Below are positions 1-4,562 of a DNA stretch of 4,562 nt, piece after piece. Source of the DNA: a virus (lineage: Duplodnaviria; Heunggongvirae; Uroviricota; Caudoviricetes); IMG/VR virus record IMGVR_UViG_2913177423_000003, positions 1-4,562 of that record; one strand, 5' to 3'. A program made the translations under genes and the position numbers. Every line of letters begins with the position of its first letter. The stretch's first letter is position 1. The notes under the pieces are model-generated. The model had not been told where the DNA came from. It saw only the letters and a list, made by a program, of their open reading frames with translations, and did no database searches.

Positions 1-114
1 AAAGATCCCCCTGTTGAGCACAACTAACACCTGGAGCGCACGCCAGACTTTCAACGGTGGGATCACCGGGACGCTGACGGGGAACGCCGACACCGCGACG
101 AAATTAAAAACAGC
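1..114. repeat. Left inverted repeat (IR-L); coding, specifies the conserved junction peptide of the fibre
   Basis: Hand alignment with the reverse complement of 4449-4562: mismatches only at positions 22, 23, 37, 58 and 91. Identity decays after about position 114. The outer 21 bp are identical. Confidence 0.9.
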
Positions 115-2020
115 ACGGAAGATTAATAACGTGCTGTTTGACGGTTCTAAAGATATTTCGCTGACGCCTGCGAACCTTGACGTCACCAGCCTGACGTTTA
201 TGAAAAACAACGGCGAAATGCCGCTTGATGCCGACCTGAACACATTTGGTCCCGTTAAGGATTATGTGGGTGTCTGGTATAAATCCACATCCTCCAACGC
301 AACACTGGAGAAACATTTCCCGGAAGACGGTGCCGTAGGTGTTCTTGAGGTATTCAATGGCGGTAATTTTGCAGGAATGCAGCGTTACACCACCAGGACT
401 GGCAATGTTTATATGCGCAACCTTTCTGGTTCCTGGAATGGCTCTGACGGCCCGTGGAGTTACTGGCGACAGATTCAGTCAGCAACACGCTCTCTGAGTA
501 CAACCATTGACCTGAATACGCTCGGAGGCGCAGAGCATCTTGGTTTATGGCGAAACAGTAGCGGCTCTATCGCTTCATTTGACCGCAACTATCCGGAAGA
601 AGGGAGTTATGGTCAGGGACTCCTTGAAGTTCTTGAAGGTGGTGGGTACTCACGCACGCAACGCTACACGACCCGCCGAGGGAATGTATATGTTCGATGT
701 CTTTCTGCTACATGGAATGCAGAGAATCCACAGTGGGAACCGTGGTCAAGAGTGGGCCATCAGTCAGAGTGTCGTTATTACGAAGGGGATTTGAATGTTC
801 TAACCGACCCCGGCATTTACAGCGTTACAGGGAAGGCAACAAACGGTCCAATGCAGGATACCGCTGGAGCAACACTGCTTGGGATACTGGAAGTAATCAG
901 ACGTTTTGATGGTGTGTCTGTTTGGCAGCGTTACACAACCACAGGGAAAGCAGAAACCACACAGGGGCGTACTTTTGAGCGCGTCTACGCCGGGAGCAAA
1001 TGGACCGAATGGCGAGAAGTATATAACTCCTTTTCGTTGCCCCTGAATCTGGGTATTGGCGGCGCAGTGGCAAAACTCACCAGTCTGGACTGGCAGACCT
1101 ACGATTTTGTGCCGGGCAGTCTGATAACCGTTCGGCTTGATAACATGACCAACATTCCCGACGGTATGGACTGGGGCGTCATTGATGGCAACCTGATAAA
1201 CATCGCAGTTGGTCCGAGTGATGATTCCGGTACGGGGCGCTCAATGAAGGTATGGCGCAGCACTGTAAGTAAAGCGAACTACCGTTTCTTCATGGTGCGC
1301 ATCTCAGGAAATCCGGGAAGCCGAACGATCACGACAAGACGAGTGCCGATAATTGACGAAGCCCAGACATGGGCAGCGAAGCAAACCTTCAGTGCTGGCC
1401 TTTCTGGTGAGCTGTCCGGCAATGCTGCTACAGCTACAAAGCTGAAAACCGCGCGAAACATTAATGGTGTCAAATTTGATGGTTCCAGCGATATAAATAT
1501 TAATACGCTGGTATCCCGGAATCGCGTCACTGCATTAAGCGGGAATGCAAAGGGGACGCCTGGTATCCAGATGTATGAGGCATATAACAATGGCTACCCT
1601 TACGCCTATGGCAATGTGCTTCATCTTACGGGTGTGTCCGCAGTTGGAGAAGGTGAGTTACTTATCGGCTGGAGCGGCACCAGTGGGGGATACGCGCCAG
1701 CATATATCCGTTCAAGGCGAGATACAGATGATGCTCAGTGGTCTGGATGGGCGCAAATTTATACAACAGCTCATAAACCCTCGGCAGGTGATATTGGCGC
1801 TTATACCGCCGCAGAATGTAATTCGCGTTTTATTACAGGTATTCGCTTAGGTGGTTTGTCATCCCTTCCAACGTGGAATGGTACTGGCTGGCATGACAGG
1901 TCAGGGCATGTTCTTACTGGTGTTGTCAATAGTAATACTGATGAATTAATTGATATCGCGCAGGCAAGACCTGTTCAGTATTGTATTAATGGCACATGGT
2001 ATAACGCGGGAAGTATTTAA
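2..2020 (+). CDS. Tail-fibre protein, variable C-terminal portion (alternative A); 5'-partial, continues upstream of the window
   Basis: The 668-aa ORF from the track stays open in frame to position 2 (aag atc ccc ctg before the TTG at 14), with no Shine-Dalgarno sequence before that TTG. It contains the tail-fibre repeat motif [17 protein letters not shown] twice (about aa 23 and 469) and three tandem units of about 90 aa with the core LEV-(13-14 aa)-QRYTT--GN-Y-R. Stop TAA at 2018-2020. Confidence 0.85.
221..1024 (+). repeat. Three tandem, diverged units of about 90 codons inside fibre alternative A
   Basis: Protein units about aa 70-160, 161-250 and 251-337. LEV cores at aa 111, 204 and 292, each followed by QRYTT then G-Y-R and W--W. 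Confidence 0.7.
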
Positions 2021-2022
2021 TT

Positions 2023-2550
2023 ATGATGCATTTAAAAAACATTAAAGAAGGCAATCCCAAGACCATTGAACAATATGAGTTAACCAAACGATTTAATATT
2101 GTCTGGTTATGGTCAGATGATGACAAAAACTGGTATGAGGAACAGAAAAACTTTCAGGATGATACTTTAAAAATGGCCTACGACGAGAACGGTATTATTC
2201 GTTGTATTGAGAAAGATGTGTCAATGATCAATCCTGATGGCTTGAGTGTTGTTGAGTTACCGAATATAACCGCCAACCGTCGCGCGGATATTTCTGGTAA
2301 CTGGCTGTTCAAAGATGGCACTGTAATCAAACGGATTTATACCCAAGATGAACTACAACAACAGGCGGAGTTACAAAAAAACACCTTGCTTTCAGAAGCT
2401 GAATTAGTCATTCAGCCGCTGGAACGCGCTATTAAGCTAAATATGGCTACTGATGATGAACGCGCCCGGCTGGAAGCATGGGAACGCTACAGTGTTCTGG
2501 TGAGTCGAGTAGATACCGAAAACCCTGAATGGCCTGATAAACCAGAATAA
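2023..2550 (+). CDS. Tail-fibre assembly chaperone (Mu U / P2 G-like family, as recalled)
   Basis: 175 aa starting MMHLKNI, with a GGGAAG Shine-Dalgarno-like sequence 9 nt upstream. It starts 2 nt after the fibre stop. The C-terminus ...[29 protein letters not shown] is the characteristic tail of tail-fibre assembly proteins. Stop TAA at 2548-2550. Confidence 0.85.
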
Positions 2551-2557
2551 TAATTAT

Positions 2558-2573
2558 GGCCCGATGTTGGGCC
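2558..2573. terminator. Candidate stem-loop in the spacer between the convergent chaperone genes
   Basis: GGCCC-gatgtt-GGGCC (5-bp GC stem, 6-nt loop) lies 8 nt after the + strand chaperone stop. Only TT follows, so it is weak as an intrinsic terminator. Confidence 0.2.
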
Positions 2574-2669
2574 TTCGAATGGTGGTTCTGGGACCAATAT
2601 CGCTTGTGGATTAATACCTTGATGCACCGGAGGTAGCAGATATATCCAGTGCACCATATATTGAATGGT

Positions 2670-3272
2670 CTACGCCTCTGGCAGTTCAGGCCAGAGGACA
2701 TCCGGCGCGGTGCTGGTATCTGTTACCGTCACCGCGTCAATGTAATCCAACACGATGTTTAGTCGGGTGGATTCCGTTTGCGTCAGCTTCCGCCCTGCCT
2801 GTAATTTCAATTGAATTAGACTGATAGAAGCCATTGCAGCATCAATCAATGACTGGCGCTGTGCTTCTGCCGCTTCTACTGCGGCATTGTGTTGTGCCTC
2901 GGTGTCTGTCACCCATTTCTCACCATCCCATTTATCATATGGCGTTAACGGGGCGATGGTGGTTGTATTTTCAGGATAATCCCCCGGTGCTGTGATTTCT
3001 TTTGATTCTCCTGTTTCGGTGCTATAAACGATTTCACCGCGATGGTCTGGCACATACTCCCATGAATTTAAATCTGCCGAACGGCAGATAGCATAACCCG
3101 CCTTATGTGTGCTAGGAGCATCTAAACAGGAATTGGCCGGAATGCCAACACCAACAGCAAGATATTCAGTTGATGCAGATATATATTCTAATGTTTCGCT
3201 ATCATAGTTATGAACGATAATATTTCCTGCCTGTACGGCAATAAGTTCATTATTCAATATCGCGTTATCCAT
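2670..3272 (-). CDS. Tail-fibre assembly protein (lambda Tfa-like type)
   Basis: 200 aa. GIPANSCLDAPS and SWEYVPDHRGEIVYSTETG resemble lambda Tfa GLPANSTDIAPP and SWHLVEDHRGKTVYDVASG (recalled from memory). The C-terminus TDTSTAPDVLWPELPEA resembles Tfa VDTSTAPDIEWPAVP. The ATG at 3270-3272 overlaps the stop of the upstream fibre ORF (TAATG). Stop TAG at 2670-2672. Confidence 0.85.
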   Translation of the reverse strand: MDNAILNNELIAVQAGNIIVHNYDSETLEYISASTEYLAVGVGIPANSCLDAPSTHKAGYAICRSADLNSWEYVPDHRGEIVYSTETGESKEITAPGDYPENTTTIAPLTPYDKWDGEKWVTDTEAQHNAAVEAAEAQRQSLIDAAMASISLIQLKLQAGRKLTQTESTRLNIVLDYIDAVTVTDTSTAPDVLWPELPEA

Positions 3273-4561
3273 TATGCAGCTCTCACAATATAATTAAATG
3301 ATGTATTACGTGGTCGCATAGATATCCATACGCTATTAAAATTATCTTCTGCTGTTCTTTGTGTGCCTGTAACTGAGTTATCAGCCGAAGCTGGAACATA
3401 GTCACTGTTATCCCCGGCTTTAGCACCAGAAGGCATTCCGATTATTTGCGCTTTATCAGCGGAAGCAAATGCTATACCAACCTTGACAGAAGTAGCCACG
3501 TCAACCCCGTAATAATCCTGTAACGCTGTGCGAATAAGTGTTGCATCCTGATTACTGAGTAGTGATCGTCCACTGTCTACACCACGTCCATCATCCCAAC
3601 CACGGATAAACTCACCGCGTAAATCAGGTAATTTACCGGTAGTGTATACCTTGGCAAGCTGAGGGTATTTTTCCATATCAAAGGCAGCGCCATTGCATTT
3701 CAGCCAGCCTGTCGGAGGCGTGGCGGAAGGCCACGGCAAGGGGACGCCTACGGGAATGATTTCGATATTTGCGCTACCGTTAAATGATACGCCGCTGATT
3801 GCGCGAGCGGTTTGCAACTTTGTAGCCGTTGCTGCATTACCTGTCGTATTTTGATTTCCCGTAGTGTTAACGCCAGGCAAGTTAATATTTGCAGTCCCAT
3901 TGAATGACACGCCTCCTATAGTTCTTGCGGTTTGCAATTTTGTTGCAGACGCCGCATTTCCTGTAGTGTTCTGGTTTCCTGTTGTATTTACACCAGGAAT
4001 CGAATCTTTAGATGTATAAATTTGCGCCCATTCTGACCACTCGGCAGTCGTTACATCTCGTCGAGAACGGATATAACTTGGAGCATGTGCACCACTTGTG
4101 CCACTCCAGCCAATCAGGAGTTCCCCCTCTCCGACAGAGGTTGCACCTTTAAGATGAACAACGTTTCCGTATGTAGTGGGATAACCATTATTGCTAACTT
4201 CATACATCTGGATACCCGCTGATGCTCCCTGTGTGGCACCAGTTAAGGCGGTAACACGCCCGCGACCAACGAGAGTATTGATACTAATATTTTTGGTTCC
4301 ATCAAATGACACACCATTAATACTGCGCGCTGTTGCCAGTTTTGTCGCGGTTGCCGCATTACCAGTGGTGTTCTGGTTTCCTGCGGTGTTTACACCAGGG
4401 AGGTTGATGTTTGTAGAGCCATCAAATGCCACACCACCGATCGTGCGGGCTGTTTTTAATTTCGTCGCGGTATCGGCGTTCCCCGTCAGCGTCCCGGTGA
4501 TCCCGCCGTTGAAAGTCTGGCGTGCACTCCAGGTGTTAGCCGTGCTCAACAGGGGGATCTT
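3272..4561 (-). CDS. Tail-fibre protein, alternative variable C-terminal portion (alternative B); 5'-partial, continues beyond the window end
   Basis: The 425-aa ORF stays open in frame to 4561. It starts with the same junction peptide as alternative A, followed by four copies of the fibre repeat (about aa 23, 63, 198, 240). A collar-type receptor-binding motif follows: TGWLKCNGAAFDMEKYPQLAKVY...GKLPDLRGEFIRGWDDGRGVDSGR (about aa 268-345). Confidence 0.85.
   Translation of the reverse strand, partial: KIPLLSTANTWSARQTFNGGITGTLTGNADTATKLKTARTIGGVAFDGSTNINLPGVNTAGNQNTTGNAATATKLATARSINGVSFDGTKNISINTLVGRGRVTALTGATQGASAGIQMYEVSNNGYPTTYGNVVHLKGATSVGEGELLIGWSGTSGAHAPSYIRSRRDVTTAEWSEWAQIYTSKDSIPGVNTTGNQNTTGNAASATKLQTARTIGGVSFNGTANINLPGVNTTGNQNTTGNAATATKLQTARAISGVSFNGSANIEIIPVGVPLPWPSATPPTGWLKCNGAAFDMEKYPQLAKVYTTGKLPDLRGEFIRGWDDGRGVDSGRSLLSNQDATLIRTALQDYYGVDVATSVKVGIAFASADKAQIIGMPSGAKAGDNSDYVPASADNSVTGTQRTAEDNFNSVWISMRPRNTSFNYIVRAA
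3821..4402 (-). repeat. Tail-fibre repeat units with a recurring PGVNT(A/T)GNQNTTGNA linker inside fibre alternative B
   Basis: Three linker copies on the - strand at about 4343-4399, 3941-3997 and 3821-3877. Hand comparison of two copies gave about 80 percent nucleotide identity; the longest exact shared run seen was about 16 nt. Confidence 0.7.
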
Positions 4562-4562
4562 T
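4449..4562. repeat. Right inverted repeat (IR-R), partner of 1-114
   Basis: Same alignment as IR-L. Read on the - strand it encodes [39 protein letters not shown], against [39 protein letters not shown] at the left end. Confidence 0.9.

Follow-up and report, generated by a model that had tools for sequence, protein, structure and literature searches.

A repeated junction motif as a probable module joint in the tail-fibre genes of a predicted P1-type invertible cassette

Genes and modules of the window

The window, meaning the whole stretch of 4,562 bp that was analysed, is one complete assembly contig (RHJQ01000048.1; GCA_004211995.1). It contains two opposed gene sets, each made up of a fibre variable part and a Caudo_TAP chaperone, which converge on the centre (open reading frames 14-2020(+), 2023-2550(+), 2670-3272(-) and 3272-4549(-)). 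The layout is thus Sv-TAP / TAP'-Sv', with a terminal inverted repeat (IR) of 156 nt (1-156 versus 4407-4562; 86% complementary). Both fibre frames run open to the contig ends and both encode KIPLLST(T/A)NTWSARQTF. The TTG at nt 14, which had been listed as the start of fibre A, is therefore an artefact, and from the frame being open to the contig start it follows that fibre A continues a constant part lying upstream. The following features were assigned:

1-156, plus strand: left arm of the terminal inverted repeat (IR-L), coding for the beginning, J1 included, that the two variable fibre parts share
2-2020, plus strand: variable part of fibre A (Sv-type), 668 aa from nt 14
26-145, plus strand: J1, the IR-encoded junction motif (aa 5-44, NTWSARQTF...FDG)
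176-1024, plus strand: three knob repeats of ~90 aa (aa 55-337); homology to P2-like H genes begins here
1025-1360, plus strand: domain X (aa 338-449), predicted to be an internal shaft domain and not a tip
1361-1498, plus strand: J2, the second junction motif (aa 450-495), on which the sequence-only reading had centred
1409-1456, plus strand: putative recombination hinge inside J2, with the parental switch at 1409-1422 and the KTAR codons ending at 1456
1499-1765, plus strand: K domain of fibre A (aa 496-584), common to fibre B and the long IR of P1
1766-2020, plus strand: distal tip of fibre A, Mu S' type
2023-2550, plus strand: chaperone for fibre A (Pfam Caudo_TAP, PF02413; E=1.8e-35)
2670-3272, minus strand: chaperone for fibre B (Pfam Caudo_TAP, PF02413; E=5.1e-31)
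3272-4561, minus strand: variable part of fibre B, 425 aa when counted from nt 4549, with a frame that stays open as far as the contig end
3763-3997, minus strand: pair of J repeats arranged in tandem before the collar tip of fibre B (repeat families D1/D2, 120-nt spacing)
4013-4282, minus strand: K domain of fibre B, partly the partner arm of a weak inverted homology
4283-4402, minus strand: additional J repeat that separates J1 from K in fibre B
4407-4562, minus strand: right arm of the terminal inverted repeat (IR-R), partner of IR-L

The flank of P1 cixR (...TTAAGAGAACTCGGTACCAGCGGTGAAAAGATCCCCCTGTTGAGCAC) matches the window from nt 1 onward, and the window starts at AAAGATCCCCC, ~27 nt inward of where the cix crossover lies in P1. 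Because of the terminal inverted repeat, the outward-open frames and this match to the cix flank, we regard the window as the probable interior of an invertible tail-fibre cassette of the P1 C-segment type. The invertase gene, the pair of crossover sites and the constant part of the fibre would lie beyond the ends of the window; in P1, a serine invertase gene adjoins the C segment. P1-like phage-plasmids provide the closest frame, with nt 1-1479 being 95.5% identical to pNCYU-26-73-5. A promoter and terminator scan of the central region found nothing beyond chance, except for a small GC hairpin.

In relatives, the part corresponding to fibre A is preceded by a P1-type Sc of about 420-470 aa. 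The knob repeats of fibre A form repeat family D3 (spacing 279/267 nt), and shuffle tests gave z=32 for Kn1-Kn2 and z=4-5 for Kn3. When knobs, X and K of fibre A were compared profile to profile, no significant similarity was found, apart from the last knob strand against K (probability 47%, 23 columns). As these comparisons and the pairwise shuffle tests agree, it is unproven that the 90-aa repeat family also includes X and K. K of fibre A matches PHROG tail-fibre families with E-values of 1e-61 to 1e-65. At the distal end, aa 564-668 align with residues 385-488 of PDB 8JU3 (phmmer, E=1.3e-45), named the Mu gp52 fibre (PMC11821841). The alignment opens in the last strand of K (YIRSRRD..WS.W..IYTT versus FYRSARD..WSEIYTT), and the real tip of fibre A would consist of aa 586-668 together with the end of K. 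The chaperone of fibre A appears to travel with this tip; similarity to the P2-like prophage of E. coli EC556 runs on through the chaperone gene at 67-97% per 60-nt window. Fibre B is arranged in the order J1, J, K, J, J, followed by a tip of the phage tail collar-domain type.

Copies and conservation of the junction motif

The sequence-only reading had proposed that a diverged second copy of the junction module lies in the middle of fibre A, with homology to fibre B's N-terminal module. This copy is real: aa 447-585 (nt ~1352-1765) share homology both with the start that the IR encodes for the two fibres and with aa 1-180 of fibre B. In a composition-adjusted BLASTP comparison, fibre A aa 447-635 and fibre B aa 1-241 aligned with E=4e-54 and 45% identity, and the single gap of 40 residues in this alignment corresponds to the extra J repeat in fibre B. 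Besides the N-terminal module of fibre B, J2 and K are homologous to the segment directly after cix in P1 S. Of the span originally given (1361-1813), the homology held, although not up to its end: convincing similarity stops at about nt 1765 (..WAQIYT), after which the Mu S'-type tip follows.

The identity of about 60% between the two junction copies, counted earlier by hand at the nucleotide level, was reproduced, as J1 (aa 5-44) and J2 (aa 451-490) agree at 72/120 nt and at 27/40 residues. Most differences do indeed fall on third positions, with 30/40, 32/40 and 10/40 identities at codon positions 1, 2 and 3. To J1 against J2 a score of 145 was assigned, compared to 23.5 +/- 5.0 for 2000 shuffles (z=24.5), none of which reached 145. 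Likewise, the observed score for K of A against K of B was never reached by shuffled sequences (z=51). As the shuffles never reach the observed scores, neither the J1/J2 nor the K/K similarity is compositional, and the possibility raised at the outset, that only a shared Gly/Thr/Ala composition was being seen, is excluded. The weak second inverted homology was also found; it spans 204 nt (1562-1765 versus 4013-4216; repeat I1) and is 71% complementary.

The motif is not confined to the two copies first noticed. J is a motif of ~40 aa of the form GNAxTAxKLxTARxIxGVxFDG, of which the window holds seven copies, two in fibre A and five in fibre B, including the IR-encoded ones. Searching with the consensus GNAxTAxKLxxARxIxxVxFxG gave six matches in the window (fibre A aa 23 and 469; fibre B aa 23, 63, 197 and 237), two in P1 S and two in Sv'. 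The tandem period of J is ~40 aa (120 nt), seen in fibre B as repeat family D2 with spacings of 120, 402 and 120 nt.

In an alignment of 21 relatives and fibre B, J2 holds the sole invariant columns. Third codon positions of J1 and J2 are 25% identical, which is the random level, and positions 1 and 2 are at 75-80%. This pattern points to long purifying selection on the protein and not to decay. We also searched for traces of an inversion site. In the window, no cix-like site was found with a 22-nt pattern allowing <=3 mismatches, and a AAACCNNGGTTT-type core gave a single match at chance level, located well away from J2 at 2381. Nor does the peptide that precedes J2 resemble ..IQYLGLRELGTSGEKIPLLS, which cix encodes. 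Since the protein is kept, silent sites are saturated, the invariant columns lie here and a cix-like site is missing, J2 is best seen as a maintained and probably functional element that also serves as a mosaic joint, and the earlier view of J2 as a fossil junction does not hold.

J is probably a structural element of the shaft, or a linker. Searches of Pfam, NCBIfam and PDB sequences gave no match for J or K, which are found in PHROG tail-fibre families only. Pfam PF03406 (Phage_fiber_2) did not match fibre A, fibre B or J2 plus K, even at E-values up to 10. In relatives, PF03406 matches parts that lie outside the extent of the window. An AlphaFold2 monomer model of fibre A aa 330-668, built on the 21-sequence alignment, had a mean pLDDT of 30.6 and was unusable.

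Breakpoints and exchange of distal parts

The sequence-only reading had predicted rearrangement breakpoints at 1361-1480. Such breakpoints exist. Megablast matches end at 1465 for P2-like phages and at 1479-1494 for P1-like plasmids. By sliding identity, nt 1-1440 match the P1-like plasmid pNCYU-26-73-5 at 97-100%, and this value drops to at most ~47% beyond 1500. The H gene of the P2-like EC556 prophage shows the reverse: its homology sets in only at nt 177, immediately behind J1, with a rise in identity from 40% to 95% at nt 181, and nt 1441-2040 are 93-100% identical.

A three-sequence comparison located the change of parent more precisely. The 11 consecutive informative sites at 1324-1408 are all of the pNCYU type, and at 1423-1520 all but two of 28 informative sites are of the EC556 type. 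Since the sites change type between 1409 and 1422, the parental switch is placed in an interval of 14 nt inside J2. The informative sites over 823-1320 are mixed, so that other histories are possible.

The sequences found behind J2 are diverse. Among 113 homologues with the same X-J2 part, at least five unrelated distal classes follow directly after ..TATKLKTAR, namely K, a Mu/P1-type domain, another fibre segment, a collar tip and further J repeats. For instance, P0026, which shares 97% identity with aa 1-496 of fibre A, goes over directly from J2 to a collar tip. Other P1-like plasmids become homologous to fibre B just behind its last J, at aa ~264. J motifs are thus located at the boundaries of exchangeable modules, as the breakpoints near nt ~177, within 1409-1494 and near aa ~264 of fibre B show. 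Together, the breakpoints and the varied distal parts bear out the view that fibre A is a concatenation of modules with J2 at a module boundary.

From these comparisons we infer that exchange at J takes place by homologous or short-homology recombination. Among close relatives, the nucleotide conservation of J2 is not visibly above that of its flanks, and for this reason the joint could also reflect selection for functional chimeras and not a preference of recombination.

The reading that we favour, and hold to be quite likely, is that J2 and K form a conserved adaptor between modules and that distal parts are exchanged at J. J2 and K (nt 1361-1765) would then be a standard adaptor of the tail-fibre superfamily of P1 S, P2 H, Mu S and T-even gp37. 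J would be a conserved stretch of trimeric shaft between globular fibre domains, and its invariant middle may be the evolutionary joint at which phages recombine distal parts. The part exchanged would comprise the domain that follows, the tip that binds the receptor and the gene of the matching chaperone. On this reading, fibre A is a mosaic of three parts: a P1-type frame (constant part, cix and J1); a cassette of three knobs and domain X, also present in P2-like H and T-even gp37; and J2-K with the Mu S'-type tip and chaperone, near-identical to a P2-like E. coli prophage.

Alternative histories and relation to known fibre systems

The gene layout of the window is that of the P1 C segment (Sc / cix / Sv-U / U'-Sv', with the Cin invertase), and the cix-flank sequence and J1 are nearly the same in both. 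The segment is 4,256 bp long in P1 and at least 4,562 bp in the window; the inverted repeat is ~0.6 kb and near-identical in P1, but 156 nt at 86% in the window. The IR of P1 encodes J-K-J', which is homologous to J2-K of the window. Moreover, the tips differ from those of P1, being of the Mu S' and collar types. P1 S has one J followed directly by K, inside the long inverted repeat, whereas fibre A of the window has a knob cassette of 446 codons inside J. 5' of the KTAR codons the J of P1 is identical to J1 at 82/93 nt, and 3' of them it is identical to J2 at 50/63 nt. On this comparison, fibre A corresponds to P1 S interrupted at the KTAR hinge by 446 additional codons (nt 119-1456). This insert consists of the 3' half of one J, the three knobs, domain X and the 5' half of another J. 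This arrangement explains the two J copies of fibre A and the weak inner inverted homology of the window (K of A against K of B). It may have arisen by insertion into a P1-like J or by deletion in the P1 lineage.

The P1 arrangement also gives rise to the strongest rival explanation, which we consider unlikely and which partly overlaps with the favoured reading. It holds that a long IR of the P1 type (cix-J-K, ~0.6 kb) was once present on both arms and was split when the knob cassette entered the J of fibre A and an extra J entered fibre B, so that the K/K homology would be its decayed inner half. Consistent with this, both P1 arms continue from cix straight into J-K-J', S and Sv' of P1 agree at 66/66 nt in the first J and at 97% in the second, the window has the same module order, and the P1 J is a J1/J2 hybrid split at KTAR. 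The K domains themselves argue against it. K of A and K of B share 72% of residues and 67% of nucleotides, K of A and K of P1 share 76% of nucleotides, and the silent positions, at 43% and 58%, respectively, are near saturation. By contrast, K of A is 93-100% identical to the H gene of a P2-like prophage that lacks an invertible segment. Since it is so close to this prophage and so much further from B and P1, the K copies look like separate lineages of a common module and not like a repeat that decayed in situ.

Very improbable, in our view, is the model put forward in the sequence-only reading, in which an older complete fibre was extended by an in-frame second fibre, leaving J2 as a fossil inversion junction. 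It does account for two J copies within one gene and for the resemblance of J2-K to the N-terminal module of fibre B. It further requires that aa 338-449 were once a terminal, possibly receptor-binding, tip, and domain X does not behave like one. A word-index search with X alone returned 9 fragments only and was replaced by an exhaustive search of representatives, together with tblastn against phages. The latter showed X to be 55-62% identical to mid-gene segments of T2/T6-type gp37. The exhaustive search found 88 representative proteins, of which the 77 with a full-length match were counted; in 75 of these the last X is followed by 53 residues or more, with a median of 264. Many homologues have two or three X in tandem, interleaved with knob repeats. 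Because sequence follows X both in gp37 and in nearly all representatives, X is probably an internal shaft domain. In addition, the search for X homologues found no relative with a shorter fibre A ending near aa 449, J2 is the most conserved part of the protein, and cix-like sequence is missing near J2 as in the rest of the window. The direction implied by a second fibre fused behind an old tip is doubtful as well, since, compared with P1 S, the order of modules suggests that a knob cassette entered one J in front of a J-K-tip already present; alternatively, fibre A reads as the product of wholesale swapping of distal parts at J.

A true fossil of this kind was seen elsewhere. In locus L007, P0034, an H protein of a P2-like prophage, has P1-type Sc-cix-J1 sequence. 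No partner site or invertase was found in the 15 kb examined around it, and its solitary cix-like site is one mismatch from that of P1.

Equally improbable is that there are either rare inner inversions through the in-frame inverted homologies of the segment (J2 against the J copies of B, and K of A against K of B), giving four fibre types and not two, or a dedicated recombination hotspot at the KTAR hinge. The weakest proposal is that J2 or the K/K pair is itself a second recombination substrate, either as a secondary site of the p15B Min type or for RecA, so that inner inversion would yield four fibres. An inverted in-frame homology (1562-1765 / 4013-4216) does exist and natural fibres combine the proximal cassette of A with a B-like J-K-J-J (P0037, P0039 and P0132), but its arms are merely 71% identical, no AAACCNNGGTTT-type core lies in or near J2, and the natural combinations are just 68-79% identical to this element and hence not its derivatives. 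Inner inversion is further made unlikely by J2 sharing no in-register exact run longer than 11 nt with the other Js of the window, and runs of this length are far below what efficient homologous recombination needs. The P1-related plasmid p15B, in its Min system, likewise shuffles the 3' ends of tail-fibre genes in an invertible region, but it has six invertase crossover sites, whereas the window has no internal crossover-like site.

A further close system is formed by the P2 gpH-type tail fibres of P2-like prophages, for example that of E. coli EC556. Its H protein has 840 aa, and nt 177-2550 of the window match in one piece at 87.7%, spanning the knobs, X, J2, K, the tip and the chaperone gene. 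Where the window has P1 Sc-cix-J1, EC556 H has a P2-type N-terminal part for baseplate attachment; it has a single J (J2) and its locus is non-invertible.

Fibre-tip exchange is a well-known route by which phages change host range. Short conserved motifs reportedly flank exchangeable fibre segments, and such segments are said to be common to P1, P2, Mu and T-even phages, in work attributed to Haggard-Ljungquist (1992), Sandmeier (1992 and 1994) and Tetart (1998). The window is a new combination of known modules with an unusually sharply mapped joint, and as such it represents ordinary mosaicism of a kind already described. The principle has been known since the early 1990s, and the understanding of host-range evolution is therefore unchanged. 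What is gained is a precise module joint at the sequence level: it is the ..TATKLKTAR hinge within a 40-aa motif, and the P1-like invertible cassette in which it lies brings together parts known from P1-like plasmids, P2-like prophages, Mu and T-even phages. This joint can guide both the design of engineered chimeric fibres and the annotation of fibre genes, the latter because J and K have no Pfam or NCBIfam model. Functional chimeric fibres of P2 and P1 have been built experimentally (PMC9942202), and the inversion regions of P1/D6-like plasmids are reported to be their most divergent parts (PMC6799933; PMC6906374).

The remaining parts of fibre A also have counterparts in known fibres. The domain ahead of the tip in Mu S' has no detectable sequence similarity to the rest of K, but the solved Mu S' tip (8JU3) matches that of fibre A, and in the window the cognate chaperone gene lies directly downstream. 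With T2/T6-type gp37, fibre A has the cassette of X and knobs in common.

Contig ends and a cix remnant in a P2-like prophage

The window (1-4562) corresponds to one complete short-read contig (RHJQ01000048.1, GCA_004211995.1), and both of its ends are located within the inverted repeat, some 27 nt further in than the crossover position of P1 cix, the site at which the Cin invertase acts. These ends are an assembly break typical for an invertible segment. As they fall inside the inverted repeat, the apparent open reading frame start at TTG 14 is an artefact.

We also found a cix-like site outside such a segment, in the P2-like prophage locus L007 (GCA_017012515.1). Its tail fibre gene H (product P0034, 1018 aa) contains the C-terminus of the P1-type constant fibre part Sc, followed by cix and the sequence of J1, the copy of the shaft motif J (about 40 aa) that is encoded in the inverted repeat. 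At L007 6986-7008 there is a single cix-like site, TCCAGTACCTTGGTTTAAGAGAA, with one mismatch to that of P1; the 15 kb examined yielded neither a partner site nor a gene for an invertase. The H gene of L007 carries a genuine fossil inversion junction within a non-invertible gene.

Shaft modules of fibre A

Fibre A (+ strand) harbours a second copy of the motif, J2 (1361-1498), in which parentage switches sharply. Upstream of J2, between 823 and 1320, informative sites of the P1-like plasmid type and of the P2-like prophage type take turns in short patches, which suggests that older gene-conversion tracts are present within the third of the approximately 90-aa knob repeats and the internal shaft domain X (aa 338-449).

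Domain X (1025-1360) and the preceding knob repeats show about 55-62% identity to T2/T6-type gp37 of virulent T-even phages. The complete knob-X cassette is also present in one representative protein, P0134, where X is followed by the first half only of a J-like motif (HTWTAQQDFNG). In the very long fibre P0132 (1494 aa, also a representative protein), the cassette and J-J-K, K being the domain that follows J2 in fibre A, are succeeded by four further J repeats ahead of the tip. Evidently, the J unit can be multiplied, which varies the fibre length.

Tips, chaperone genes and the central gap

The G+C content of the fibre body is about 50%. It drops to 36-41% at 1801-2400 (fibre A tip and first half of its chaperone gene) and to 38-40% at 3001-3450 (where the fibre B tip ends and its chaperone gene begins), which fits an origin of tips and chaperones different from that of the shaft modules.

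On the fibre B arm (- strand), the fibre stop codon and the chaperone start codon share one base (3272-3274, ATGA-type junction), and on the fibre A arm 2 nt lie between them. This spacing suggests that translation is coupled in both arms. Between the convergent chaperone genes, a gap of 119 nt contains a small G+C-rich hairpin (GGCCC-AACATC-GGGCC, 2558-2573) that may act as a bidirectional terminator.
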